DNA of 64,000 nt from Octopus vulgaris (lineage: Eukaryota): the NCBI GenBank assembly GCA_951406725.2, contig OX597816.1:31186001-31250000 (forward strand), written 5' to 3'. The notes beneath the pieces were generated by a model, which was not told where the DNA came from, did not search any database, and saw only the letters and a program-made list of their open reading frames with translations. The stretch's first letter is position 1. Each line of letters starts with the position of its first letter. A program made the translations under genes and the position numbers. This document shows positions 3,076 through 63,164 of this stretch, piece after piece.

Positions 3076-5225
3076 ACTATGTTCCAAGTGTGTTAGTCAT
3101 TCAGGAAATGTTTAAATGCAGAATAAATGGGATTGAAATGCATGGTATATTCCTTCAAGACCCACGTCTAACCCTAAATCCTTCCACTGATAGAAGTGAC
3201 GTAACGTTTGCAGAAAAGCACAAATATTGTGCCTCTGCCTCTAAGATCAACGCATGATCTTAATGGAGATAATATCTTCTCAGGTCCTAAAGTTGTCACC
3301 CGTCTTCTTTCAGATATTTTTCTTCGGTTACTGTGAATTTCCATACATTCTCCCGTGCAGCCTGTTCAAGGCTTCTCTTTACGTTTGCCAACTTGACTAG
3401 CAAGATAAAATAGTCAGTTGATGTTTATTTTGAGAAGCCAATTACTCGACATGTCACACAGTTCGGCTGAATCGAAAACATGCATATGCCAAGTGAGCCT
3501 CTTAATCACGCAGCCAGGCCTGATTCTATTGCGGATGTTAACGCTAAATTTCCGCTTGAAGAACGTAGCAAATCTCATTGTAATTTCATTAAACAGTAGT
3601 GACCTCTGCAGTTTAGTATTCAATTTAAGTTGTATACGAGAGAAACATAATTTTCCTTGGAGGAGTGTATTGTAGGTTGTCGAGAGTTCAACATCTGGGT
3701 CATCCTGGATTTTGCTACTATACAACATTAATAGAGTGGCGAAAGGTTATCATCTCCTGAAGTACTTATTATTGTAGTCATGAAATTTCCAATTACATAC
3801 TTCACTTATTGCTGCCTCCTATTCTCGAGGAACATTTGAGTGGTTTCTGTTTTGAATCACTCCCAGCCCAAAGGTCATTTCCTTTTAACGTGATATTTCC
3901 TTGTTGACACACAGTAATATCTTCCTGAAAAAGTTACTTTGCATATAGGATCTTCATTTTGCACATTGTGTCCATTGTGACTCCATTCCGAATGTGAAGT
4001 ACATACTCAGTATTTTACAGCAGCGGTAAATGCCTAATCACCATCACCTACCACGATGCTGTGCAATTCCTCGTGTTCAATGGCGTATCGAATCTGGTGT
4101 AATGATGCATAACCTCTATGCTGCCTTTCAAAAATGTCATTGCATATGAAAGAGTGTGTGTGGAAACGGGCAGAAATATTTGGCAGATTATATCAGTCAC
4201 CTACCACAAAGATTTCTCCTTTTACGTTATGGACATAACATCTGGGTTGGTAAGTAAGTTTTAGATGCGACACATGGATGTCTTGAAATCTACTCTCTAT
4301 CATCGATGTAAGCATTAGCATCACGTCTAAAACATCATTTTTTCATTTACATTCAATAAGGAAATTAAAGGACATTTAATAAGGGTTTATGCGTTCGGCT
4401 GCGGGTAAATTCTGCCCTAATCAGGCAATGCACTAATACGTTACATTTTTAATCTGGATAAAAAATGAGAAATATTTATGAAAGAACTACTCTATCATAA
4501 GGTTCAACATACCATTATTGTAGCCCGGCTATTAATTCTTACTATTCCCAGTTTAATTAAAAATTTGTCACTACCTTCCTTGTTAATTAGGTTCAACCCA
4601 CTGATTCCTTCAACACATCATTTACCAACAATGCATTCTGTATCTACATTTATTTTAGTATCTCAAGTTCGGTCTCCGTGTAGCTTGACAGTTCCTTTCA
4701 TTCGGATGACTTAAACTTGACACATATATCCTCACTGCCATCCACAGATATATTCATCGTACTTCTATGATTTGCCACTTGAGAATTATCAGTATATATA
4801 GTCTGATTGGCATACCGATTCTGCGTATTATTTTGACTTGTAAACTAGAATTACTTTCTTCGTATTGAACAACTTCTCATTGCAGACTTGTTCAAGCATT
4901 TCCGAACTAAGTGTGTGGGAGTTTTTGTCCATTCACATTACAGCTGCCACTATCACGTGCATATACATATATACGCATACTCTCACACACACACGCGTAC
5001 ACACATATATACTTATACACATAATTATATACATGCATATACATGTATATATAAATACGTCTGTATATGAATTTATATTTATTCAGTGTGTATATGCATA
5101 TAACTTAGATAACTTAGATATGTTTAGACCAAAGATTGGTCCAGGCCATGTCTAACTTAATAGCACCACCTGATAGGATTATTCGAATCCTGTTTAAGTC
5201 AAGTTTTGTTTAAGTCATGTTTTGT

Positions 5226-8200
5226 TCAAGTAGTGAGTTCTTGTTGGGTGAGTTGTATCAAGTTTTGTTCAAGTAGTGAGTTCTTGTTGGGTGAGTTGTA
5301 TCCAATTATGGGTGGCTTATCTGGTATTCTTTGAAGGAATCTATCCAGACTCCGTTTAAAGTTGATGGGATCCTTTTCCTCTTTGATCTCCCTCGGGACA
5401 ATGTTAAATAGGGCAGGGCCTGTTGAGGCAAAGAAATTATGTTGCAGTGTACATGTATGTCGTGATCTTGAATTGGGCAGGGGAAGTATGGCCCGTGGTC
5501 CCAGTCTTGGATGAACCATGAAGCTAACGTTAAGGTTGTTTGGGCAAAGTTGGCGGTATATTCTCCACATCGTACAAATGATGTACCGCTCACGGCGACG
5601 CTGGAGGGAGTAAAGTTTCAAGGCTTTAAGGCGATCCCAATAATCGAGAGCAGCCATGCCTTCAATTCGTTTAGTGAGTGCCCTCTGGGGTGACTCAATC
5701 CTGGAGATGTTTTGCCTTGTATGGGGAGACCACAGTGGGCAGCAGTAATCAAGGTGTGGCCGTACAAAGGAGGAGAAAATTGGTATGATGACACCTTGTT
5801 TTCTGGACCGGAAAGTTCTTAAGATCCAGGAACTAATCCTACGAGCTATATCGACCTTCTTGTTGATGTATGCACTCCAACTGAGATCGTCATCAACAAT
5901 TACACCCAGGTCTCTGATATTGTTAGAGGCTGTGAGCGGTTCCCCTGAAGGAAGAGAGTATGGCTGTTTTAGTGAGGAATTTCTTCCAAAATGCATCAGC
6001 TCAAACTTTCCCTCATTCAGTTGCATTTTGTTTCTGTCTACCCATTGACTCACAGCATATAGATCAGACTGGAGTTGAGTTCGGTCTGCTTCTTCATTGA
6101 CGATTTGCTGGAGCTTAGTGTCATCAGCAAATATTTTCACTTTACAGTAATGTACGACACTGGAAAGGTCGTTTATGTAAATTATGAAGAGTAGCGGACC
6201 CAAAACAGTCCCCTGGGGAACACCGCTGGTGACTTTTGCTGGTCTTGAGTGTACTCCAGCAACTACAACATGTTGTGTTCTATTCGCCAGGAAATACTTA
6301 ATCCAGTGTAGAACTTTTCCACAGATTCCAACATTTGCCAATTTTGAGAGTAGGATATTATGGTCTACCCTGTCGAACGCTTTACTGAAGTCAAGATATA
6401 TGACGTCAGAGTTCGAACCTGTTCCCAAGGCTTTGGGTACATCTTTAATGTGGTGTAAGAGCTGTGTTAGACAGTCCCTGCCACAGCGAAAGCCATGCTG
6501 ATTTGCATTTAGGAGTTTGTGGGTCTCCAGGAAGTCAGCTATCCTTGATCTTAACACTCTTTCAAACACTTTAATGATGTGGGAGGTGAGTGAGATTGGG
6601 CGATAGTTGACTGCGAGGGATCTGTTTCCCTGTTTGAAAACCTGGTTGACCGACTGGGATAGAAACTGTTTCGGTATATAACCTGTGTCTAACGAATTTC
6701 TCCAGAGGTTGGTCAGACGGACTGCAAGTTGGTGTCTACATTCCTTCAGGAGACTAGCGGGAAATCTATCAGGGCCTACAGCAGAGTAGTATTTGACCTC
6801 ATTTATTGCTGCTACGATGTCAGTGGCAGTGAAGGTTATGTCTGAGATTTTATGTTGGGAGTCAACTTCGTTTGTTTCTCTTACGTCAATATCAGTGGGA
6901 ACACTAAAGACAGAGCAGTATTGTTTCTGCAGTATTTCTGCCATTTCTTTAGCATCGTGTTGGGGAATGCCGTTATCACCAATCAATGGCCCAATGGGTG
7001 AGACACTGGTTCTATGCTTATTTGCATAAGAATAGAACACTTTTGGGTTCTGTTTGATGTTTTTGATTACCCATTGTTCATCCACAGCTCTTTGATTTTC
7101 AATGGAGGTTTTCATGTTGGTCTGCAGATGAAGTTTTTCCAGCTCTAGTCTTTTCATTGTTGTTGAATGTGGATGTTGCGTGTGGGAATATTTTAATTGG
7201 TTGATTTTTTTGTTGAGTCTTTTGATGCGCCTAATGAGTGTTTTTTTCTTTTTAGGGAGCCGGTTTCTGTTAGTGTTAGTAGATTTCGTGAGAGCGTGTT
7301 TAGAACATGCATAGGTGACAATGTTTTCAAAGTGCTGCCACGCGGTCTCAATATGAGAGGAATTGAGAGTAAAAGACCAGTCGATGGAAGACAGATCCTT
7401 TCTGATTGCTCCCCAGTCCGGTTTGTGGAAGTTTATGTTGTCAAATGGGTGCCATGGAGTGGGATTGGCTGGTTTGCTTTTTATATGTCGGGAATTAAAA
7501 TTGCAGACTACCATGTCGTGGTCTGAGAGGAAAGTTTTTTCGACTGAAATACTGTGAACGTAGCTAGAGTGATTGGTCAATATCAGATCCAAGATCGTTT
7601 TATTCTGCCTCGTTGGTTCGAGCATTAGCTGAGTCAGGAAGTACTCATCCATCAGATTAAAGAGCAGTTCTGCTGGTGCTCTATCTGATGTAGAGCACTT
7701 GCCTAACTTCAGAGTGTTTGTGGGCCAGTTCACATGAGGGAGGTTAAAATCACCCATCACTAGTATGTTTCGGGAGTTGTACTTCCGAAGGAAGGACTTG
7801 ACTTTGCTAAGGCACTCTTCAAAGCACTTTAGAGGTGCCTGGGGAGGCCTGTAAAGACCAACAATGATTATGTCCTTGGCTTTGCTGAATAGTGATACCG
7901 ATTCACAGTAGCCATTGGAAAATATGTTCTTAGCATCAAGTGTAAAGGAGTCATGGATAAAGATGTCTGTCCCTCTCTTGTTTCGGTCTGTGCGATCCGC
8001 ACGAACAATGGTGAAATCTTTTATTTTCACCTCTGCGTCCATATGGGTGTTGTTCAGGTGAGTCTCGGTAAGGATAAAGAAAGGGAAGCAATGTGCCATT
8101 TCGGCAAGCCAACTCTATATATATGGGATCTTCCATTTTTGAGCAATAATTCATGGGTTGATGCCACGTACATTTAACAGGAATGTCGAGGTAAGGGAAG

Positions 8201-15103: not shown

Positions 15104-15263
15104 AGGAGTGGCTGTGTGGTAAGTAGTTTGCTTACCAGCCACATGGTTCTGGGTTCAGACCCACTGCGTGGCATCTTGGGCAAGTGTCTTCTACTATAGC
15201 CTCAGGCCGACCAAAGCCTTCTGAGTGGATTTGGTAGACGGAAACTGAAAGAAGCCCGTCGTA

Positions 15264-15316
<53 letters not shown>

Positions 15317-15528
15317 CTGTATGTTTGTGTGTCTGTGTTTGTACCCCTAGCATTGCTTGACAACCGATGCTGGTGTGTTTACGTCCCCGTCCCTTAGCGG
15401 TTCGGCAAAAGAGACCGAGAGAACAAGTACTGGGCTTACAAAGAATAAGTCCCGGAGTCGATTTGCTCGACTAAAGGTGGTGCTTCAGCATGGCCGCAGT
15501 CAAATGACTGAAACAAGTAAAAAAGAGT

Positions 15529-31019: not shown

Positions 31020-31439
31020 GTATGTATGTATCTATGTATGTATCTATGTACGTATCTATGTATATATGTATGTATGTTTGTACGGATACATACATACCTA
31101 CACACATATATATAGATATACATATGTATATAGGTATGTGTGTATGTATGCATATATGTGTGTGTGTGATGTACATCTACAGAAATAGGGAGACATAGGT
31201 ACACGTACACAGCAGTAATATCAAAAGGTAATATTTATCTTCTACGTAGTGTGAGCGTTGTGTTATTACACAGAATACAGCGTTATTCAACATGAGAGTT
31301 GCTCGAAGCTGGAGGTTATGGCCCAACAACGATATGAACACGAGTGCATTTAGGCACCAAACATTTTTATGAGAGAGAATACTGAATATATATGTAAACA
31401 TACATGCATACACTCACACACAAACACATATATATATAT

Positions 31440-31655
31440 TCTTTTATTCTTTTATTCTTTTAGTTATTTCAGTCATTTGATTGCGGACATGCTGGAGCAC
31501 TGCCTTTAGTCGAATAATTCAACCACATGACTTTTTCTTTGTAATTAGACTATCAGTATCTTTTGTCGAACCGCTACGTTACGGAGACGTAAACACACTG
31601 ACATCGGTTGTCATGTGATGGTGGGTGACGATGAAAACACAGACACACAAATACA
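31440..31655 (-). mobile_element. SINE type A 3' part (duplicated at ~33243-33460)
   Basis: Reverse complement of the type A tail (TTTCAGTCATTTGATTGCGGACATGCTGGAGCAC). Confidence 0.8.
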
Positions 31656-31663
31656 TACATATA

Positions 31664-31887
31664 CAGGGTCCCCAAATGTTGGTTTACATTTATCACGAAG
31701 TCACTTTAAATTCTTTCAAAATATTTTATCACATTTAAATTCATGACATTTAAATCTTACAATTAACTAAATTAACATAGAGTAATGGTTAAGTATTTAT
31801 TTTTTATAATTAAGATCTAAACTGTTAATATATGAATGCGAAAGTAATCATTGAATAACTGTAAACCTACTTTTGTGGCCACCATGT
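31664..31887. mobile_element. Tc1/mariner-type MITE (duplicated at ~33467-33691)
   Basis: Imperfect TIRs CAGGGTCCCCAAATGTTGGTTTACA / TGTAAACCTACTTTTGTGGCCACCATG flanked by TA; related TIR at ~32781 and ~34591. Confidence 0.7.
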
Positions 31888-32039
31888 ATGTGTACATGTA
31901 TATATATGTGTATATATGTGTATGTATATATAAATTAAATTAGAGATAAAATCACTATTAGGCAACTCAAACAGTGATAGACACAAACCAAGACATAAGA
32001 AACAAAAAAAATAAATATAATTAATATAATATACAATAT

Positions 32040-32106
<67 letters not shown>

Positions 32107-32109
<3 letters not shown>

Positions 32110-32445
32110 CACAGTTGTTGCTGTGTGGTAAGGAGCTTGCTTACCTACCACATGGTTCCGGGTTCAGTCCCACCGCGCAGCACCTTGGGCAGTTGTCTTC
32201 TACTGTAGCCTAAGGTCGATCAAAGCCTTGTGAGTGGATTTGGTAGACGGAACTTTGTGTGTGTGTGTGTGTGTGCGTATGTGTGTGTTCATGTTTGTTT
32301 GTCTGTGTTTGCCCCACCATCGCTTAACAACCGATGCTTGTATGTTTACGTCCTCGTCAATTAGCAGTTCGGAAAAAGAAATGATTGAATAAGTACTAGC
32401 CTTACAAAGAATAATTCCTGGGGTCGATTTGTTCGACTATAGGCA
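32107..32445 (+). mobile_element. SINE type A (duplicated at ~33920-34248); headless fragments at ~32653-32750 and ~34456-34558
   Basis: Homology to 15104-15530. Confidence 0.85.
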
Positions 32446-32745
32446 TATAATTCATAAAAGTGAGTTTATATTGACCCTAATAGCTAAATTGCCGAAAGTG
32501 TGTCTTGGTTGTGTCATAGCATCAGCTGTTCCTCCACAATGTTCTTGTCAATAGAAATCATAGGTAGGATAGCTAGCTGTAGGTTGGCAGCCAGGGTGGA
32601 ATTTTAACTGTGGGTGTTCGTTGACTCGAAGAAACTTGAGAATCTGGGCGGCCACTGCGTGGCACCTTAGGCAAGTGTCTTCTAGTTTATCAGGCCGACC
32701 AAAGCCTTGTGAGCAAATTTCGTAGACAGAGCCTGAAAAAAATAT

Positions 32746-32783
<38 letters not shown>

Positions 32784-33860
32784 TTGGCCCCAAATAGATT
32801 TACAGTTGTTCAAGACTATGAACGAGTAGTACTAAGTGTTGGGATCTCTGCACTGATATTTAACATGTATGTATGTTTGTACGGATACATACATACCTAC
32901 ACACATATATATATATATATATACATATGTATATAGGTATGTGTGTATGTATGCATATATGTGTGTGTGTGATGTACATCTACAGAAATAGGGAGACATA
33001 GGTACACGTACACAGCAGTAATATCAAAAGGTAATATTTATCTTCTACGTAGTGTGAGCGTTGTGTTATTACACAGAATACAGCGTTATTCAACATGAGA
33101 GTTGCTCGAAGCTGGAGGTTATGGCCCGACAACGATATGAACACGAGTGCATTTAGGCACCAAACATTTTTATGAGAGAGAATACTGAATATATATGTAA
33201 ACATACATGCATACACTCACACACAAACACATATATATATATTCTTTTATTCTTTTATTCTTTTAGTTTTTTCAGTCATTTAATTGCGGACATGCTGGAG
33301 CACTGCCTTTAGTCGAATAATTCAACCACATGACTTTTTCTTTGTAATTAGACTATCAGTATCTTTTGTCGAACCGCTACGTTACGGAGACGTAAACACA
33401 CTGACATCGGTTGTCATGTGATGGTGGGTGACGATGAAAACACAGACACACAAATACATACATATACAGGGTCACCCAAATGTTGGTTTACATTTATCAC
33501 GAAGTCACTTTAAATTCTTTCAAAATATTTTATCACATTTAAATTCATGACATTTAAATCTTACAATTTAACTAAATTAACATAGAGTAATGGTTAAGTA
33601 TTTATTTTTTATAATTAAGATCTAAACTGTTAATATATGAATGCGAAAGTAATCATTGAATAACTGTAAACCTACTTTTGTTGCCAGCATGTATGTGTAC
33701 ATGTATATATATTTGTATATATGTGTATGTATATATAAATTAAATTAGAGATAAAATCACTATTAGGCAACTCAAACAGTGATAGACACAAACCAAGACA
33801 TAAGAAACAAAAAAAATAAATATAATTAATATAATATACAATATATATATATATATAATA

Positions 33861-33922
<62 letters not shown>

Positions 33923-34554
33923 CACAGTTGTTGCTGTGTGGTAAGGAGCTTGCTTACCTTCCACATGGTTCCGGGTTCAGTCCCACCGCGCAGCACCTTG
34001 GGCAGTTGTCTTCTACTGTAGCCTAAGGTCGATCAAAGCCTTGTGAGTGGATTTGGTAGACGGAACTTTGTGTGTGTGCGTATGTGTGTGTTCATGTTTG
34101 TTTGTCTGTGTTTGCCCCACCATCGCTTAACAACCGATGCTTGTATGTTTACGTCCTCGTCAATTAGCAGTTCGGAAAAAGAAATGATTGAATAAGTATT
34201 AGCCTTACAAAGAATAATTCCTGGGGTCGATTTGTTCGACTAAAGGCATATAATTCATAAAAGTGAGTTTATATTGACCCTAATAGCTAAATTGCCGAAA
34301 GTGTGTCTTGGTTGTGTCATAGCATCAGCTGTTCCTCCACAATGTTCTTGTCAATAGAAATCATAGGTAGGATAGCTAGCTGTAGGTTGGCAGCCAGGGT
34401 GGTGAATTTTAATGTGGGTGTTCGTTGACTCGAAGAAACTTGAGAATCTGGGCGGCCACTGCGTGGCACCTTAGGCAAGTGTCTTCTAGTTTATCCTCAG
34501 GCCGACCAAAGCCTTGTGAGCAAATTTCGTAGACAGAGCCTGAAAAAAAACCGT

Positions 34555-34593
<39 letters not shown>

Positions 34594-37104
34594 GTTGGCC
34601 CCAAAGTAGATTTACAGTTGTTCAAGACTATGAACGAGTAGTACTAAGTGTTGGGATCTCTGCACTGATATTTAACAAATTAACAAAGAAATGTGAAAAG
34701 GGGAATCTCTCTAGCAACTGCTTCCTGGGGGGATTGGACCACAATTACCATACATAAGGCCATCAACAAGGAAGGTCTCGCCCTAGTAATGTCCCATACG
34801 GGTCCACTCTTGCATAGCCAACTGTTAACGAAAATATCTCACATACAAGAACAAGCCACCACACTAATGAGCAGTCCTATCCGTGACACAAGCGCTGCGG
34901 ACAGGCATGGTTTACAAAGTACGGTATTGAAATACTCATACGTCATCGGTAGCATGGTTCAACTGTTCTGCGGCTACAAAAGGTATTATGTTTCATTCGA
35001 TAACTATCGAGGTGAAATTAATGTTAGTTTCCCGTTAGGATTTTGAAACTGAGAAGAACTGTTGTGCAAAATCTCTCATGTACCTTGCGGATTTTCGTAT
35101 CAACCATATTCTAAAGGAGAAACTATGATTGTTTTTATCTTGCATTTAACTTGACTTCCGTATACGCTACATATATGTTAATACTTGTGATCTTGTTCGT
35201 ATTAATTGCTTTTTCCGTATTAGGATTAGGGTTAGGGTTATGATATTATTTGTTTTTGCTCTGATATCATGAACATATTTCTATTTTTAGAATATCCAGC
35301 TTCTTTCGATATTGTATGTTTGTCTGAAACAATGATCAACCTGTCCCAATACGGTGTTCCATTCATGGTTAATGTTCTTAGACCGTTTTATAACAATTTA
35401 ACTGTTTGATCAGTGAATATATATTTGTGGATTCCTTCTAGTTCTAGTTTTGTTCTTGATTTTTATTTAGACCTACTTCTCATTTGACATAGTTGATTAC
35501 ACTAAATTTACATATGGGAGAAGGTTAAATGTGTCCTACTTACTAGTAAAGGAACAACTGCGTTGAGGAGCGATTTCTATGTTGTTAAAATATACATTGA
35601 GCTACATCTGCTACACTTGAATTTTCAAAAAATGTAGATCATATGGAAAATCCTAAACAAATGCTAACTGTACATGCAGTGTAGCAAAACAACAGAATTT
35701 TCTGAAGATCTTACTGGTCTGCATCGTAAGTTTCAGTGCTAAAACTGAAGCTTTTGAGATCTACCCATTAGCTTTCTTGTATATCCTCAGATTTTGCACA
35801 ACACAAAAACAAGAAGGCGAATGACATTAAATATTATACTATATATTAGTTACTACCAATTTTATTAAAATTTTTAGACAGTTATTAATTCTAAAAATGT
35901 GATTAATCTTATCAATTTATATGGAATTAAGTTAAAATATATTTCCATATGCGAGTGTGTGTGCTTATGCATATCTACGTGTCTGCTCATATGTGTGTGT
36001 GTACTTGAAATTACGTGTTCAAATATGAAATTTACATTTATATTTTTCAGTAATTTTATATTCATAATTATTCATATAATTTATTCATTGTTACTAGTGT
36101 GTTTCAAAGACACACACCCCCACACCCACCCATAAATTTGTCGAAACACTTTTTAGTATTACTAGAAAAATCCATTTTCGTTATGTGTATATATGTACCT
36201 ATGAGTATGGCCATATGTGAGTAGATATGTACTTATGTATCTGCTCTTCCATTTGTATGTGTATATATATGAATACACACACAGAGACACAGTCACTCGC
36301 TCCTACGCAAATATACATTAATATATAAAAGAAGTTTGACATGAGAAGGTGGAATGAACATGTTTATTCCAGAATCGCTACAATTGTTTCTGCACATCGG
36401 TATTACTGGTATTAGATGAAAGTTACTCATACTATACGCATTAATTATATCCAGCAATTGCTGTGCACCTGCACACACGCAGGTGAAAAAGGTGGAGAAC
36501 ACTGCTGGATCAAGTTTAATTTCCCTTTCTTTCATTCCGTTACTCATTCTATTGTCAAAAAGTAACACGGAAATTCAAAGCGATACAAATGAGAAATAAC
36601 ACCATTGTTTAATTTTATGCAATTTCATAATATTATTCAATACTACAAATGAGAAACCTTGCCATAGCGCAATATTATGCTATGATAACATTCTTAAAAA
36701 GCACTCTGAAATGGTTCCAGCATGTTTCTCCATCATCTTACCCTAGAATTAAAAGCTCATTTCTTGCATTTCAAAAAAAAAAAAGACTTTTAACGTATAA
36801 TATATTATATCAATATTTATTTACTAAAAAATATATTAATGTATTTTGTTTGTCCTCACTAGCATGGTTATACTGCAGTTTAATTAAATATTTAATTTCA
36901 CTTCTTTCATGCTCACCAATCTTTATGTATTATTTATTTTTCCAATTACTTCACAATCATTTTTCCATTGACGTTCATTTCATTTCTATATACTTTATTT
37001 ATATTAAACATTCTCTACCTCTTCCTGTATCTCCCTCTTTCTATGAATATATATATATACATACATATATACATACACACATACACATACATATATATAT
37101 AGTT

Positions 37105-38365: not shown

Positions 38366-38579
38366 ATTTACTCTTTTACTCTGTTACTTGTTTCAGTCAT
38401 TTCACTGCGACCATGCTGGAGCACCGCCTTTACTCAATCAAATTGACCACAGGACTTATTCTTTGTAAGCCCAGTACTTATTCTATCGGTCTGTTTTGCC
38501 GAACCGCTAAGTTACGGAGGCATAAACACACCAGCATCGGTTGTCAAGCGATGTTGGGGGGACAAACCTGGACATACAA

Positions 38580-38677
<98 letters not shown>

Positions 38678-38832
38678 ACGATAGGCTCCTTTCAGTTTCC
38701 ATCTACCAAATCCATTCACAAGGCTTTGGTCGGCTCGGGACTACAGTAGAAGACACTTGCCCCAGGTGCCACCAAGTGGGACTGAACCCGGAACCATGTG
38801 GTTGGTAAGCAAGCTATTTACCACACAGCCAC
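38366..38832 (-). mobile_element. full-length SINE type A
   Basis: Reverse complement of 15104-15530 including head, internal microsatellite and (GAGTAAAA)-like tail. Confidence 0.9.
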
Positions 38833-49509: not shown

Positions 49510-49886
49510 TCTTTTCTACTCTAGGCACAAGGCCAGAAATTTTTGGAGAGAAGGCCAGTCGATTAGACCTACACCAGTACGCAACTGGTACTTAATTTAT
49601 CGACCCCGAAAGGACGAAAGGCAAAGTCCACCTCGGTGGAATTTGAAATCAGAATATAAAGACAGGTGAAATACTGCGAAGCATTTCGCCCGGCCTGCTA
49701 ACGTTTCCTATTTCTTTATTGCACACAAGGGGCTAAATATAGAGGGGACAAACAAGGACAGACAAACGGATTAAGTCTATTATATCGACCTCAGTGCGTA
49801 ACTGGTACTTATTTAATCGACCCCGAAAAGATGAAAGGCAGAGTCGACCTCAGTGGAATTTGAACTCAGAACGTAACTCAGAACGT
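49510..49886 (-). mobile_element. nested or tandem Nin-domain-type SINEs (type B), left part of an array split by LINE-B
   Basis: Plus strand TGGTACTTAATTTATCGACCCCGAAAGGAYGAAAGGCAAAGTC.ACCTCGG is the reverse complement of a Nin-like domain; B-box GAATTTGAACTC. Confidence 0.85.
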
Positions 49887-51152
49887 AGTAGTAAGTAGCT
49901 GTTGGAACAGAAAGACGTGTTTCAGCTCGCTCTGACCAGTAAGTGGCTGTTGGAACAGAATACATATGAACCCAACTTTACAATTTTCAACTGAAAACTC
50001 TACTGAAAATTCTTCCTTCTCAAAAACGACAAAGCCTTAATTCCAGTGAAAGCTACGTTTTTGTATCGTGAACACGTATTATGAAAGATATAATACTGTA
50101 ACGATAATAATAATTATTCGTAAGTACACAATATTCCTATTAACAAACACACAATAGTTTACATTATCTCAGAACTATAACATATACCAGTACTATTGTC
50201 TCCTACTGTTCAATACACCACAGAAGTTGATATTTTGAATATTTCTATCCTTATTTGCCATTACCTATATTTATTACCTATATTTACTGTTATTATCTAT
50301 ATTTCTTGTTGCACAAACAACTTGGTTAAGTGACCAACAACGAATCGAAGACACTGAAAAACAATAGGTAGCTCACAACAACAGTAACAAAAAACACATC
50401 TCTAAATATCGCAACTGGTCGTACATTGAAGTGGATACTTTCATTAACTCATGGATCATTCTCTTTCAAACCGATAACATACATGCCTCAAACTTCAATT
50501 TCATTGCTAAAAGAGTTGGCCATCTCTTTAATAACCCTGCTTCATATCTCACTGTGAGAAACCTGTAACCACGTGGATAAACTAGCCCGAAATTTCTTAC
50601 TCACCACAGCCCATTTAATGTTATTATCTATATTTTTTTGTTGCACAAACAACTTGGTTAAGTGATCAACAACGAATCGAAGACACTGAAAAACAATAAA
50701 TAGTTCACAACAACAGCAACAGTAACAAAAAAAAAAAACAAAAAAAAACACATCTTTAAATATTGCAACTGGTCATATATATTGAAGTGGATACAACTAC
50801 AACATTCACATCAGCAGCTAAAAGAACTAATAGACCCGTCATTATCGTCATCATCATTGTTTCCATCTTCTACTGCTACCTCCCCTTCTTCATCTTCTCT
50901 CCCCCTCCTCCTGCTACTACTCCTAGTGGCCAAAGCCAAACATTCCATTCTACCTCGCCAGTAACCCATCCCAACCACTCTTACTTTCTCCATATCCCAC
51001 CACCATAGCTCCACTAACAACTCAAGTACCATTGCTACTACTACTACTATCTCAGCCAGTGTACAAAATCAACCACTGCTCCTTCCCCCTCTCCATTCAA
51101 GTCAAACAATTCTAAATCTCAAGCTATTCACAATCCACCGCCCACATAAACG

Positions 51153-52553
51153 ATGACGGGTAACGGAAATCCACGGACTGCCAGCTCAGAGAGCAACACT
51201 TGCCTGGCCACAGACATCATATTGAAAATCATCTCATCAACACAAAATCAAGATATAAAAAGTGTCTTGTCGAAATATGATATCAAACAGGAAAGTGGAG
51301 CAATATACAAAAATATTTTCACCAACTGTAAGTTTACGATGTTAAAGAAAGCAGCAGCTTTCTTGAATGATGGTGTCCAAGTTGAGCTCACAAAACCAAA
51401 CCTCACCAACTGGATTATAGCAAGGATTGAAAACTTCCTCCCGGAGACTTGCAAAATGTGTGACAAACAGTACTGCATTACATTTGGCCAAAAACCAGCT
51501 TTGGCATGCTTCATCTGTGGACAAGGAATACACGAAGCGTGCTACTTAAAAAAGATAAATAACCACACCATTCCAGATATTCTAGGCCTACACTGGCTAT
51601 GCAGTTATTGTTCACCAAGGGCCACAATAACGAATGAACCTAGGACCCTACCACAGACAGGCCGTTCTAAACAGATATTGATTGGCGAAACTGACATGGC
51701 AAATAAATCCTGCCACACACAGGCCATCCAAGTGCCTCTTGTAAATGACAAGAATGAAGACAATGACATGCAAACACCTACAAAACGAGAAACAGGAGAT
51801 CCTGCAGAAAAAGACCAAACTTCCCACGAAAAGAAACAGATCCAGAGCAAACGCTCAAATGAAGAAAGGCCAGTATGTATCCTTTACAGGCGCAACAAGT
51901 GCAAACATGGTCTTTCAGGTACAGGGTGCATGTACAGTCACCCCAAACCATGCAGACCATATATCAACTTCGGTACTGATCGAAAAAAAGGATGCCAAAA
52001 TGGCCGAGAATGTGAACTCAAAGATGTGCCGCAATTCGCTGAGAAAAAAGAATGTTTTGGTGAGAATTGCAAATTTATGCACCGGAAGGGTACAATTCGC
52101 ATAAAAACTACTGAACCCACACCACCAGGACCAAGCTCAGCAGGGTATGAAAACCATTTCCCAAAAATGCGGAAACCAGGTCATGGCTCAGTAGGGTATG
52201 AAAACCATTTCCCAAAAATGCGGAACCCAGGTCATGGCTCAACAGTGAATGAAAATCATGCTACTCAATTGCATACATCAGCTGTAACAAACCCAAACTC
52301 GCAGAAATTCGATATAGTAATGAATGAAAGCAGTTTTTTAGGCATAATCTACCAACTACAACAACAGCTGTACTCCATACAGACGACTCAGCAAAACCAG
52401 GCAACATTGATACAAAGGCTGACACCTGGACTTACAGGGCACATACAACAAATACAGACAGCCCAGCAGACCGAATATCCAGTCAGCACAGTCCCAGCAA
52501 CTACAACAGTCTTGCCAACAAAAGGGCAGATGTATCCGGTACAACAAGCATAA
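51153..52553 (+). CDS. LINE-B ORF1: PHD-like finger + CCCH zinc-finger array + Q-rich C-terminus
   Basis: CKMC..CFICGQGIHEAC..WLCSYC (C4HC3); CILYRRNKCKHGLSGTGCMYSH; CRPY..C..C; CFGENCKFMH RKGT. Confidence 0.88.
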   Translation: MTGNGNPRTASSESNTCLATDIILKIISSTQNQDIKSVLSKYDIKQESGAIYKNIFTNCKFTMLKKAAAFLNDGVQVELTKPNLTNWIIARIENFLPETCKMCDKQYCITFGQKPALACFICGQGIHEACYLKKINNHTIPDILGLHWLCSYCSPRATITNEPRTLPQTGRSKQILIGETDMANKSCHTQAIQVPLVNDKNEDNDMQTPTKRETGDPAEKDQTSHEKKQIQSKRSNEERPVCILYRRNKCKHGLSGTGCMYSHPKPCRPYINFGTDRKKGCQNGRECELKDVPQFAEKKECFGENCKFMHRKGTIRIKTTEPTPPGPSSAGYENHFPKMRKPGHGSVGYENHFPKMRNPGHGSTVNENHATQLHTSAVTNPNSQKFDIVMNESSFLGIIYQLQQQLYSIQTTQQNQATLIQRLTPGLTGHIQQIQTAQQTEYPVSTVPATTTVLPTKGQMYPVQQA

Positions 52554-55492
52554 TAACAGCAAATATCCAGGGTCTTTATCCGAAAACAAAACAGTGTAAA
52601 GTCCCTTTCTTGGAAGAATTAGCAACAGAAAACAACTCCAAAATAATTGGAATTACTGAAAGTCATCTCAACGAAAACATCCGCAACAGCGAAATCACAA
52701 TCAATAGATTCAACATCTTCAGATGTGATAGACAAGGCAGATCCCATGGGGGCGTTATCATGTATATCCATGATACCTATGCATGCATAGAACTTGTCAA
52801 TGAATCAAATGCCTACTGCAACCTGCTGTGCATAAAAATCATCCAACTTAATACAGTTGTAACAATAATGTACAGACTGCCAAACAGCCCAACATTATCC
52901 TTCACTGAGCCACTGACGAAGCTCCAACAAATTCTGGGAAACATGGCAAGTCCAATGCCAGACATTATCCTCCTTGGTGACTTCAACTTCCCTAACATCA
53001 TCTGGCCACATGGAAACATACTAAAACTGGGGACAAAAGCTGAACAAATACAGGCAGCCAAACTGTTGGAAGTCACAGAGAAATTATACCTCAAACAAAT
53101 GATGACAGAAGCAACAAGAAATAATAATACGATCGACTTGGTTTTCACCAACAACGAGGACACGCTATTTGACCTTCACTCAACCCCAACAATCCTTTCA
53201 GACCACAATATTATTGAAATGCATTTACACATTGGTAATGAGCCCAATGCCACAACTCTTAAACAAAAGGACATGCCAAAGCTATGCAGGTATGATTATC
53301 ACCAGGCAAATTGGGAAACTATTAACAACCAGTTACAAATCATTGACTGGGATCTCTACCTTACTGGGCCAGATAAACACAAGAAATTCTTAAACAAGAT
53401 CGAAGAAATATGTGAAAAAAATGTTCCTCTAAAGAAAACCAAGTCCACAAAAAAACCTGTACCACGGGAGCGAAAGATCCTGACGCGCAAAAGGTCAAGA
53501 CTAAGAAACAAAACATCTAAGCTGACATCAAAACATGAATTACAGAAAGTCCTTGACCAAATATACAGATTAGAAGACAATATAAAACAGCACTATGATG
53601 AAGAACGTAACAATGCAGAAAAGAGAGCCATAGAAAACATCAAGAAAAATCAAAAATGTTTCTACAGTTTTGCAAAGAAATACTCGAACACCAAGTCAAC
53701 AATAGGACCTCTCCAGAGACAAAATGGGGATGTAGTGAATAACCCTATTGAAATGGCAGAAATGTTGGGTCAACAGTATGAAAGTGTCTTCAAGGATATC
53801 GACCATACTAAACCTACCCTATCCGACATTGATTTCAACCCAGAAGACATAGCAAGAGCCATAGACAAGCTCTCCATGCACTCGGCTGCGGGGCCTGACG
53901 GTTTCAATGCCATGATACTTAAAAACTGCAAGGCACAATTGTCGAAACCCCTTTACATGATATGGAGGGAATCTATGGAGAATGGCAAAATACCAAATAC
54001 ATATAAAGAAGCACACATAACTCCAATACATAAAGGGGATAGCAAATCAAAACCAAAGAACTACCGACCAATCTCACTGACATCACACATTATCAAGGTC
54101 TTCGAAAGAATAGTTCGTGGAAAACTGGTTGAGTTCCTGGAATCCAACAATCTGATGAATTGCAACCAGCATGGATTCAGGTTAGGTAGATCATGCCTTT
54201 CCCAACTACTGGCACACCATGACCAAATCCTAGAAAATCTAGAGAATGGATACAACACAGATGTTATCTACCTCGACTTTGCCAAGGCATTTGACAAGGT
54301 AGATCATGGCATCCTGGGTCACAAACTTCGAAAGCTAGGAGTAGGAGGAAAAGTTGGTACATGGATACACGAGTTCCTTACAAATAGAACTCAAACAGTC
54401 ACTGTGAATGGAACCCATTCAACACCATCACCTGTGACCAGCAGTGTTCCTCAGGGTACAGTACTCGGCCCAATCCTGTTTCTCATCCTCATCTCTGACA
54501 TAGATGAAGATACAACCAGCAACGTCTCATCCTTTGCTGATGACACCAGGGTCATGAGACAAATCAAAGACGAGGTGGATACAGAGGCCTTACAAAAGGA
54601 CCTGACCACCATATATAAATGGCAGGAAACAAACAACATGTTGTTCAATGATAAGAAGTTTGAACTAATTCGCTACGGAACAGATCAAGATCTGAAAAAT
54701 ACAACAAACTACAGAAACCCATCAGGACAACAAATAATGGAAAAACAGTATGTGAAAGATTTAGGCATCCACATGGGAACCAACCTAAAATTCAGAGAAC
54801 ACCTTGACTCAGTCTGTCTTACTGCAAGAAAGTACAGCGGGTGGATCTTGCGCACCTTCAAATCAAGAGATACCTCAACAATGAAAACCCTCTGGAACAG
54901 TATGATACTTCCGAGGATTGACTACTGTTCTTAGTTGTGGTCACCAACAACAAAGGGCCAACTATCTAAGATAGAATCGCTCCAAAGAAATTCTACCTCA
55001 TACTTCTCAGAAACGAGGGACCTGGACTATTGGCAAAGACTCAAAACCTTGAGGATGTACTCAATGGAAAGAAGATTTGAGCGATACCGAATTATATACA
55101 TTTGGAAAATGATAGAGCAGAAGGTGCCAAACTTTGGTATCAAAACCCACCACTCACTGCGCCACGGAAGACGTTGCCAGCTGCCACCAATCAACAAAAA
55201 GGCTGGCCAGGAAGCAAAAACCCTGCGAGAATCAAGTCTGTTGGTTCGAGGAGCACAACTGTTCAACTCCATTCCGGTACATGTCAGAAATCTATCAGGA
55301 TGCAGTGTGGAATCATTCAAATTGCAACTGGATAGATACTTAAGCACCATTAGAGATGAACCCCATCTCCCAGGATATACACAACGAGCACAAACTGACT
55401 CAAACTCGCTCCTACACATGTCAAATTTAAGCAGAGAATACAACCTGGCAACCACACCAGACTCTGAGGGTGGAGTCTTCGACTTGGCCTGA
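52328..55492 (+). pseudogene. LINE-B ORF2 (APE + RT) with a single in-frame TAG at 54932-54934
   Basis: Frame open from 52328; ITANIQGL at ~52553-52576, ITESHL, GDFN, SDH, YRPISL, DFAKAFD, SVPQG, FADD; YCS*LWSP continues to 55492. Confidence 0.92.
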
Positions 55493-55525
55493 GCATGGAC
55501 TCAAACCCAAATGAAATGAAATGAA

Positions 55526-55781
55526 AATGTAACGGCATACGAAATACCTATTTCTTTACTACCCACAAGGAGCTAGACACAGAGAGGACAGACAAGGACA
55601 GACAAACGGAGTAAGTCGATTATATCGACCCCAGTGCGTAGCTGGTACTTATTTAATCGACCCCGAAAGGATGTACGGCAACGTCGACCTCGGCAGACTT
55701 TGGACTCAGAACGTAGCGGCAGACGAAATACCGCTAAGCATTTCGCCTGGAGTGCTAACGTTTTTAGCAGCTCACCGCATT
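55526..55781 (-). mobile_element. SINE type B, right part of the split array
   Basis: GTAACGGCATACGAAATACCTATTTC... matches the uninterrupted junction at 60901-60940. Confidence 0.88.
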
Positions 55782-56390
55782 TTAATGGATTCAGATATTA
55801 GCACAGAGTCATCAGTTTTGGGATGATACCAGTAGCTGGTGTTTGAGAAGGTATAAGGTGTTATCATTCAGTCGTTTGGAGTTGTGGGAATTCTGTTACT
55901 TTTCGATTGACATCTTGTCTCTGGTAATTTTTGTGAATAAATTGTGTTTTCTCTTTCTGCTGCTTTATTATCGGATATTTCAGTCTTTCACAACAGTTTC
56001 AAGGCACAAAATATTTTGTGACATCTGTTCTTCCTTGGCACATATACAGCTAAGAAACGGCCATGTTCAATCTGTAATGCAAAATAGAAAGTTGAAGGGA
56101 TCAAGGTTAAACCTCGGTTGTGTAACTACAAGAGTACCGCATTTTACCACGTGAGCACTGAACGTGATGCAGCCAAAGTAAAACATTTTTTGGTGAAATG
56201 CAAATAATTCTTGACTTCCCCTTATATATTACTCCTACATTAATTTGTATTCATTCTGCGTATTTGGAAATTACGTATTTTCATTGTACAGAATCAGTTT
56301 TGAGCGTAACTATGAGTTGTATGTTCAAATATGTTCCAGTTTCATATAACACCTTTATTTATAAATATACATGAGTCAATATTACCATGT

Positions 56391-60769: not shown

Positions 60770-61166
60770 CCTTTTCTACTCTAGTGACGAGACCCAAAGT
60801 TTTGGGGTAGGGGACAGTCGATAAGATCGACCCGAGTACGAAACTGGTATTTGATTTATCGATCCCGAAATGATGAAAGGCAAACTCGACCTCAGAAGAA
60901 TTTGAACTCAGAACGTAGCGGCAGACGAAATACCTATTTCTTTACTACCCACAAGGGGCTAAACACGGAGGGGACAAATAAGGACAGACAAACGGATTAA
61001 GTCGATTACATCACCCCCAGTTCGTAACTGGTACTTAATTTATCGCCCCCGAAAGGATGAAAGGCAAATTCGACCTAAGCGGAATTTAAACTCAGAACGC
61101 AGCGGCGGACGAAATATCACAAAGCATTTCGCCCGGCGTGCTACCGTTTCTGCCAGCTCGCCGCTT
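60770..61166 (-). mobile_element. nested SINE type B pair; further decayed copies at ~61345-61553 and ~62435-62633
   Basis: Nin-like domain twice; head ends TGCCAGCTCGCCGC. Confidence 0.85.
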
Positions 61167-63164
61167 TTTTCCGAACGGCATGTTGCAAAAGAGTACGTAG
61201 AACGGAAAAATGTCGATTTGAATTTGTAAGGCTCTAACAGACAACTGTAAATTAGAGACTGCTGAAATCTGAGAAGCGCATAATATAATTGCCTTGACAA
61301 AAGTAGGTATATATATATATATTCATGTATCACTAATATTAGTTTCAAATTTTGTCAGAAGGCCAGTACTTTCGGGAAAGAGTATAACTTGATTACATCG
61401 GCGACAATGCTCTCTAAGTACTTAATTATTCGACACCAAATTAATGAAAAGCAAATCGACGTCGTTGGGACTTGAACTCACATCATAAAGACAAAGAAAA
61501 TTCCGCAAATATTTTTGCCCGGCGTTTTAACGATTCTGTCAAATCGCCGCCTTCATTTATCTCTAATATTACAATATGAAAATAAAGAAGACAAGACTTG
61601 GCAATTTAGATGAGTTTAAAAGTTTAATTAACGATGTAACTTATTGCCAGAAGAAATTTTTGTAAGACAAAATTTTAGATTGAATTATTCATTCCAAAAG
61701 AATAAAAAGGGAATCAACCTATCAGGAAACATAAGTATTTGTGACATAATTGTTATGATATAAATAATTATATAAATACATAATAATGGACGGATAAGTA
61801 TACTAAAAATGCTAAATATATTTTAAAGTGTTATGTAGTTACAAAGAAATATATTAGCAAGTAAGTGTATTGAGAAAAATAAAATATTCATAAATTAATA
61901 TGTAACAGGCTATTATTTACGACTTTAAAGACTTGATACAGACAATCTATAGACAATTAAAGGAAATATCTATAATAGTAACAGGATATCAAAGTATGAA
62001 TGATGAATGACAAGAATAAATTTTAACGTTTTACACACAAACACAGACACATAAGTATAAGAGTATACACACACATGCACGCACACAAGCACATAAACAG
62101 ACAGGCACACACACACACACGTATACATTATGTGCAAAATAATATATTTTGGAGAGATAAGAAGAGCTAAAAATTAAAATATTCAATCGTTGAAATTTAA
62201 GAATCAGGCATAAAAATCTAAAGATGCAGTTTTTAGTAACTTAATTGAATTCGATATCAGAAAATTTTACTGTAAGACGTTAAGCCAAGAAAGCAAATCT
62301 AATATCCAGTCTAATATTTGGGCCGGTAGACGTAATATAAATAGTAAGACAGAAAGTGAAATAAATATTCGTGGAAGCTGAGTATTTAATCTGGTATTTT
62401 AGGTACGTAATGTTGCAAAATAATGGTTTATAATTTAGGCACAACGCCTGCAATTTAAGGGGAGCAATTTAGTAAATTATATCGACCGCAAAACTAAATT
62501 AGTACTGTATTTATAAATGAGTTGCGGAGTTGTTCTCGGCGGTATCTAAATGAAAACATCTGGAAGAATGTAAACAATCACAAGAATTAACCCATATAAT
62601 TTTTCCGATGCTGTAACGATTCTATCAGCTTCCACAAATTTGCTCTACCGAAATAATACAACGAGTTGTGTCATAAGGAGTAATGTATATAAACCATACT
62701 CATACTGAAAAAAAAACCCCAGATGAATTGTCCTCTATACAGAAGCCTTCAAATTAATCGATGTGTTCTTTGAAATTCATAGTTTTCCAGATATATTTCT
62801 TACGAAAACAAAACTACCTACATTCTGTTAAGTTATATGCAGTAATATCTATCATAAGTTCAGTTTAAAGTGAACATTTTATTCACGAATGTGACTCCAT
62901 GCTACAGGGTAACGGGGAGAGGAATGTCTTCATAGATAGTGGAGAATGGTTTTAGTCTCTGATAACTTTACGAAACACCAAAGCAAGGATATTTTGTAGG
63001 AAAGCATTAATACGTAAAATATAAAAGTGTTTACTGAACCTGTGTATGTCCCGGTATAGCAGAATCGTTAACACGCCGGACAAAATTTCGTCTGCCTTTA
63101 CCTTCGGATTTACCTATGTCACTCAAAGTCCGAATATTACACATACATATGGATACACAGATCA

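Follow-up and report, generated by a model that had tools for sequence, protein, structure and literature searches.

A predicted two-hairpin 3′-end module with a G.G mismatch, conserved in a CR1-like LINE lineage and present on an octopus SINE

A 64,000-nt stretch of the Octopus vulgaris genome (GenBank assembly GCA_951406725.2, contig OX597816.1, positions 31,186,001 to 31,250,000)—the whole of it referred to here as the window and numbered from its first letter—carries two LINEs, LINE-A and LINE-B, and several copies of a SINE, SINE A. The LINE features relevant to this study, with P1 and P2 for the first and second hairpins of the 3′ end, are as follows.

5103..5120, minus strand: LINE-A terminal 9-nt tandem repeats
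5122..5141, minus strand: LINE-A hairpin P2 (5 bp) and (G/T)AAAC, with AAAC at 5125-5122
5143..5172, minus strand: LINE-A hairpin P1, with a G5167.G5147 mismatch, a 3+3 bp upper stem and a bulged A5151
5226..8114, minus strand: LINE-A ORF2 (APE endonuclease and RT)
7188..7265, minus strand: LINE-A basic segment of the EN-RT linker, a candidate tail-binding region
51150..52553, plus strand: LINE-B ORF1, 467 aa from stop to stop
52328..55492, plus strand: LINE-B ORF2 (APE endonuclease and RT), with one premature stop at 54932-54934 in the window copy
53453..53530, plus strand: LINE-B basic segment of the EN-RT linker; it is conserved among relatives and, by its position, a candidate tail-binding region
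55468..55490, plus strand: LINE-B hairpin P1, with a base stem, a G55472.G55486 mismatch, a 5-bp upper stem and a 3-nt loop (ViennaRNA minimum free energy: P1a 55468-55471/55487-55490, P1b 55473-55477/55481-55485)
55491..55506, plus strand: LINE-B hairpin P2 (55491-55493/55500-55502) and AAAC (55503-55506)
55509..55526, plus strand: LINE-B terminal 5-nt tandem repeats, the family 3′ end lying at ~55526

Pfam matches in ORF2 were to APE endonuclease (PF14529/PF03372) and reverse transcriptase (PF00078) models. The two ORF2 proteins share 38% identity over 787 aa, and the closest named protein to that of LINE-A comes from Argonauta hians (52%). In LINE-A and LINE-B, Pfam found no RNase H, and neither Pfam nor a CCHC pattern found a C-terminal CCHC knuckle. 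LINEs of the CR1 group (CR1/L2 lineages) have no RNase H and no C-terminal CCHC knuckle. Both elements end in short tandem repeats rather than poly(A). These features fit the CR1 group, and we speak of a CR1-like lineage, the protein tree of ORF2 relatives being made up of members of the LINE-A/LINE-B lineage only. The LINE-B ORF1 product gives a weak PHD match (PF00628, E = 0.015, under the Pfam cut-off); at about aa 220–310 it carries a PHD-like finger and then a CCCH-like Cys/His cluster, for which support from Pfam and the ESM Atlas is weak (best Atlas value 0.87, a lead only). Where PMC4120745 deals with ORF1 types, PHD is common, though not universal, in CR1-group ORF1, and CCCH has 0 occurrences.

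SINE A has the hallmarks of a tRNA-derived SINE: pol III A and B boxes, multiple copies and a repeat tail. ARAGORN found no intact tRNA in it, and we take it to resemble published octopus SINEs. Four tail-bearing copies lie within the window, arranged as follows.

15105..15527, plus strand: SINE A, with pol III A box (~15109-15119) and B box (~15152-15161), microsatellite, body and tail
15476..15514, plus strand: SINE A tail hairpins, P1 with a G15479.G15492 mismatch, P2 at 15497-15501/15506-15510 and AAAC at 15511-15514
31460..31665, minus strand: decayed, 5′-truncated copy of SINE A that retains its tail; its duplicate is at 33263-33468 (minus strand)
38384..38832, minus strand: another full copy of SINE A, bearing the same tail (36/40 tail positions identical)

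A tandem duplication of ~1.8 kb (window about 31400-32800 and 33200-34600) holds two partial SINE A copies in each unit.

An earlier note on this DNA had quoted the tails of LINE-B, LINE-A and SINE A as sharing one architecture of two hairpins, AAAC and short tail repeats, and the architecture was borne out. All three quoted sequences were located where it had placed them, the minimum free energy fold that ViennaRNA gave for each consists of two hairpins side by side, of which the first contains a G.G mismatch, and short repeats follow the hairpins in LINE-A, LINE-B and two SINE copies. Fold z-scores against shuffles were −5.06 for LINE-A, −3.16 for SINE A and −0.89 for LINE-B, the tail of which, taken alone, folds no better than shuffles and has a weak P2 of 3–4 bp. 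The further assertion that the stems differ yet still pair is true of the upper stem and P2, where the stem differences among the three tails lie, but not of the base stem, which is GGT/GCC in all three with no double (compensatory) change, so that covariation is not established from these three sequences alone. A descriptor written from the three tails matched them and nothing else in the window, and on shuffled windows gave 0.05 matches per window (10 of 200 shuffles with one match); it is circular for those three tails, yet it bounds chance.

Public sequencing runs extend these observations from single copies to families. LINE-B loose ends fall at 55526 in four of four runs, which marks the family 3′ end, and no variant at ≥3% was seen within 55466-55507 in the four runs. 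For the LINE-A family, ~98% of depth at position 5126 is G, which shortens P2 by one pair and places GAAAC after it. Seven further variants are listed within the module: three fall in loops, three preserve pairing as a wobble and one, minor, breaks a pair. Loose ends also reveal a sister subfamily in which P2 has undergone a double change.

Relatives for comparison were chosen on protein alone. An alignment of ORF2 C-termini supplied 7 loci from the genome collection and, out of 533 confirmed in metagenomes, the best 80; removal of 6 without a C-terminus, 5 with <75 nt downstream and 19 near duplicates (>85% amino-acid identity) reduced these 87 to 57; a C-terminal search with LINE-B gave 27 relatives, as proteins without DNA context. 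ORF2 identity of the 57 is 38–51% to LINE-A and 30–43% to LINE-B, with a median of 48% among themselves. The protein of locus L002 is 97% identical to one from Bolinopsis microptera and that of L044 81% identical to one from Mnemiopsis leidyi, so that, as judged from these sequences, several loci are likely ctenophore-derived; horizontal transfer may have occurred in the lineage. Loci L081-L087 are bacterial MAG records with animal-type LINE sequence, probably contamination, and L081 has a variant of the module.

Pairing was scored from anchors that were sequence motifs holding no pairing information, with four registers hand-shifted by 3 nt. At least five of six core pairs were present in 50 of the 57 non-redundant relatives, compared with 20/228 ORF-internal and 17/228 shuffled windows. 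Three of the passes (L040, L058 and L069) show neither a covariance-model match nor a tail and are probably due to chance, which makes 47/57 the safer count; seven relatives failed (L016, L054, L057, L060, L075, L080 and L081). Different 3′ UTRs and tails occur at L058, L069, L040, L075, L080 and L016, which are candidate tail replacements within the lineage; at L058 and L069 the UTR is long and ends in a 4-nt repeat.

The module consists of a GG/CC base stem, a 1×1 G.G mismatch with G.U or G-C above it, a variable upper stem and loop, a second hairpin and AA. Among the 50 passing relatives the mismatch is G.G in 45, a second hairpin with AA is present in 38, and an exact tandem tail follows in 41; in all but one of these 41, the tail starts 24–30 nt (about 26) after the mismatch. 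The AAAC given by the earlier note as the 3′ end describes the three window tails but not the lineage, in which AAAC occurs in 13/50 and each A of AA in 49/50. Two subtypes can be told apart, one with a 5-bp upper stem and one with 3+3 bp and a single 3′-side bulge as in LINE-A. A third hairpin 5′ of P1, which we regard as an optional part, was not enriched under a lenient test (26/50 versus 116/250) and was enriched under an energy test (20/50 versus 32/250), the rows not being independent. At L052, L055 and L073, members of one starred clade, the mismatch has shifted naturally, with G.U plus U.U in place of G.G plus G.U, a change useful for mutant design. Viral contigs held 47 pattern matches to the module, none of which was confirmed.

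Among the protein-chosen relatives the stems do covary. A tree-aware G-test was run on 630 column pairs and 59 rows, with a null generated by simulating each column separately along the protein tree. When no register was set by hand, E was below 0.05 for two predicted pairs and 0.12 for the inner base pair. Hand-setting of five first-block and three third-block registers brought three upper-stem pairs to E ≤ 0.001; the inner base pair, which varies between U.G, U-A, A-U and C-G, then had E 0.054. Two non-structural column pairs also fell at E < 0.05, so the tree null is imperfect. With blind anchors, shifts in its register kept P2 from family-wise significance.

A further test used two alignments of 22 rows each (44 rows), made from sequence only with rows picked by hand: A3 for the short and A4 for the long subtype. 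Relative to the 57 loci they add L038 and leave out 14: L002, L016, L022, L025, L031, L040, L053, L054, L057, L058, L060, L069, L075 and L080. Counts exclude a further sequence-only alignment, A2, of 47 tails, in which the 5′ strands of the short and long subtypes are not in register. RNAalifold predicted P1 with mismatch and bulge from A4 and P1 plus P2 from A3, and paired cells made up 79–85% in these alignments against 33–54% for slid partners. For P2, the observed level was reached by the tree null in 0/2000 runs (A3) and 14/2000 (A4); for P1, in 0/2000 in A4 and 543/2000 in A3, so that P1 of the short subtype does not beat the tree null, the sequence being conserved there and three rows lying out of register.

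Covariance models trained without any window sequence were run on the window: LINE-A, LINE-B and SINE A ranked 1, 2 and 3 with model R2 (E 5e-4, 0.94 and 2.8) and 1, 2 and 6 with model R1 (E 4e-6, 0.53 and 4.5). Only LINE-A is significant, LINE-B (0.53–0.94) and SINE A (2.8–4.5) individually being not. Model matches on the relative loci are mostly training rows and were not counted as evidence. The two non-significant E values are what speaks for a chance resemblance of short hairpins, an explanation that we nevertheless consider very improbable: the descriptor rate on shuffled windows, the excess of passes in the pair test over both controls, the tree-aware covariation, the A3/A4 tree null and the fixed mismatch-to-tail spacing all oppose it. 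Chance is refuted for the LINEs, and a small doubt persists only over the origin of the SINE tail.

The position of the ORF2 stop relative to P1 bears on two further explanations. Frames are mixed: of the 50 relatives, 13 have the stop upstream of P1, 18 inside it and 19 downstream. In LINE-B, P1 doubles as the last codons of ORF2 (stop at 55490-55492), and a peptide pattern, GG...MA or G(R/W)S...M, ends 46/120 LINE-A homologues, so the shared sequence could in principle reflect a conserved C-terminal peptide instead of an RNA structure. That is scarcely to be expected of a P1 whose frame differs among families and which is non-coding both in the SINE and in the window copy of LINE-A, where the stop lies upstream at 5228-5226 (minus strand); covariation of the paired columns also argues against a purely peptide reading. 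Protein-coding constraint was rejected as the cause on these grounds.

A hammerhead ribozyme core (CUGANGA, stem II, GAAA) is called to mind by some relatives, which have CUGANGA before P2 and GAA, and by the GAAAC of the LINE-A family and SINE A. CUGANGA, however, occurs in only 8/50 relatives and is absent from LINE-A, LINE-B and SINE A of the window. Where present, it forms the 3′ strand of P1, which is paired and covaries, and the pairing that stem II would need, between the bases following it and those preceding AA, is missing. With 0 matches to Rfam at gathering thresholds in the window, a ribozyme is barely credible as the identity of the module and was rejected.

The fold could also be real and serve a different step at the RNA 3′ end, such as end formation or protection, stability or termination of ORF2 translation. 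Covariation demonstrates a structure and not the identity of the protein that reads it, and the stop falls inside or just after P1 in 37/50 relatives, as it does at 55490 in LINE-B. The same module nonetheless sits on a non-coding SINE of pol III type, P1 lies entirely downstream of the stop in 13/50 relatives, and the spacing is constant to the terminal repeats, not to the stop. We therefore hold this alternative to be unlikely, though it is the least improbable of those considered.

The principle of stringent LINE/SINE tail recognition has long been known, but it is understood in detail for few LINEs: UnaL2, ZfL2, R2 and SART1. According to the sections of PMC4176376 and PMC5135761 on these elements, UnaL2 and ZfL2 depend on a stem interrupted by a mismatch or bulge and on their terminal repeats; UnaL2, which requires its stem-loop with mismatch and bulge, mobilises its own SINE (PMC5135761). 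The tail of ZfL2 is described as bound by the region of ORF2p between EN and RT, a conserved basic part of which reads the stem and a variable part the loop (PMC4176376). The window module resembles the tails of eel UnaL2/UnaSINE1 and zebrafish ZfL2-1/ZfL2-2 (L2 clade) as there described—a stem-loop with a mismatch or bulge, then short tandem repeats and no poly(A), common to LINE and SINE, with a conserved stem and a variable loop. Unlike UnaL2, for which the same sources give one stem-loop with a GGAUA loop, a C bulge, a U-U mismatch and [TGTAA]n (PMC4176376; PMC5135761), it has two hairpins side by side and a G.G mismatch, conserves AA but no loop sequence, and carries repeats of 5–11 nt. 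Membership of the L2 (UnaL2/ZfL2) tails was accordingly rejected, two hairpins with variable loops standing against a single GGAUA-type stem-loop with [TGTAA]n.

Amniote CR1, an APE and RT LINE, likewise ends in a hairpin and an 8–10-nt repeat, hypothesised to be the RT recognition site; the part of PMC8665684 that describes it gives an ATTCTRTG microsatellite and a single hairpin and mentions no G.G two-hairpin module. Turtle CR1 with tortoise PolIII/SINE is a related comparison case. A further one is the bivalve SINE tails from CR1-14_CGi/CR1-Zenon, CR1, Nimb and L2 (PMC4824008; PMC11481361), for which PMC4824008 describes mollusc SINE/LINE tail sharing with stem-loops and already reports compensatory changes between SINE and LINE tails; by eye, none of the five bivalve alignments in Supplementary Fig. 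1 of PMC11481361 has this two-hairpin motif. The 3′ UTR of Bombyx/Drosophila R2, as outlined in PMC5135761, also keeps structure despite low sequence similarity and is recognised across species, but is about 250 nt long and belongs to a clade with a restriction-like endonuclease, whereas the window module measures 40–50 nt and sits on APE-type LINEs. No description of a two-hairpin G.G module, or of an octopus SINE/LINE pair with it, was found in the literature covered; Repbase/Dfam, the FASTA supplement of PMC11481361 and Ohshima and Okada 1994 lay outside that scope and could show the tail. The word ‘octopus’ is absent from the SINE/LINE review PMC3747384.

Within a deep CR1-like LINE lineage the predicted fold is conserved, with covarying stems and a near-constant spacing to the terminal repeats. 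Such spacing is as expected of a stringent-type recognition tail, as are a conserved stem-loop at the extreme 3′ end and the tandem repeats, not poly(A), that follow it. Its fold differs from those described above, which makes the module a deeply conserved structural variant, new in the literature covered, on the familiar stringent type of LINE/SINE tail. By analogy with the characterised LINEs, we put the probability at about 80% that it is a cis-acting tail bound by the LINE ORF2 protein before target-primed reverse transcription. A conserved basic segment lies between EN and RT, in the same position as the tail-binding region of ZfL2; through it, ORF2p would grip the conserved stem base, the G.G mismatch and AA, family-specific loops would add specificity, and the fixed spacing would set the terminal repeats where cDNA synthesis starts.

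SINE A would use such a tail, likely borrowed from a member of the LINE-A/LINE-B lineage. The fold and motif are common to SINE and LINEs, as the earlier note held, but the SINE A tail is no close copy of either LINE: it matches LINE-A in 31/51 columns and LINE-B in 27/41 (61–66%), below the 72–95% identity given for bivalve SINE/LINE tail pairs in the portion of PMC11481361 on these tails. The donor was therefore probably neither of these two LINEs but a third family within the lineage; otherwise recognition would have to tolerate a difference of this size.

More tentatively, and with some scepticism on our part, the module might be an ancient docking site common to the whole lineage and retained from ctenophores to octopus, for which ORF2p would rely mainly on the G.G stem base, on AA and on a 26-nt ruler and not on loop sequence, such that one protein mobilises tails only ~60% alike (LINE-A, LINE-B and SINE A interchangeably). 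If true, this would be a mode of recognition between stringent and relaxed. A module of 40–50 nt offers natural compensatory variants, an invariant-looking mismatch and fixed spacing at 30–51% protein identity, and with such variation across the lineage, clade-wide and family-specific determinants are separable by swaps. The covariance model could also assign orphan cephalopod SINEs to a LINE lineage where sequence identity is too low.

Several further observations concern the surroundings of these tails. Between 57 and 69 contigs per public run match only the last 60 nt of LINE-A (window 5111-5172); upstream of the match they carry different, partly shared sequence that begins at the 5′ edge of P1, and they possibly represent another element family that has borrowed exactly this tail. 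The end of LINE-A ORF2 (window 5191-5302) contains 43-bp and 16-bp tandem duplications, where public contigs skip 55–59 nt. A few public contigs start at 55465 or 55471, very short insertions comprising little beyond the structured tail of LINE-B. Directly after that tail, in the opposite orientation, lies a second SINE-like family with a different tail (55530-55790, minus strand); copies occur at 60816-61169 and 49557-49875, and those other than the one beside the LINE-B tail are arranged head to tail as partial repeats.
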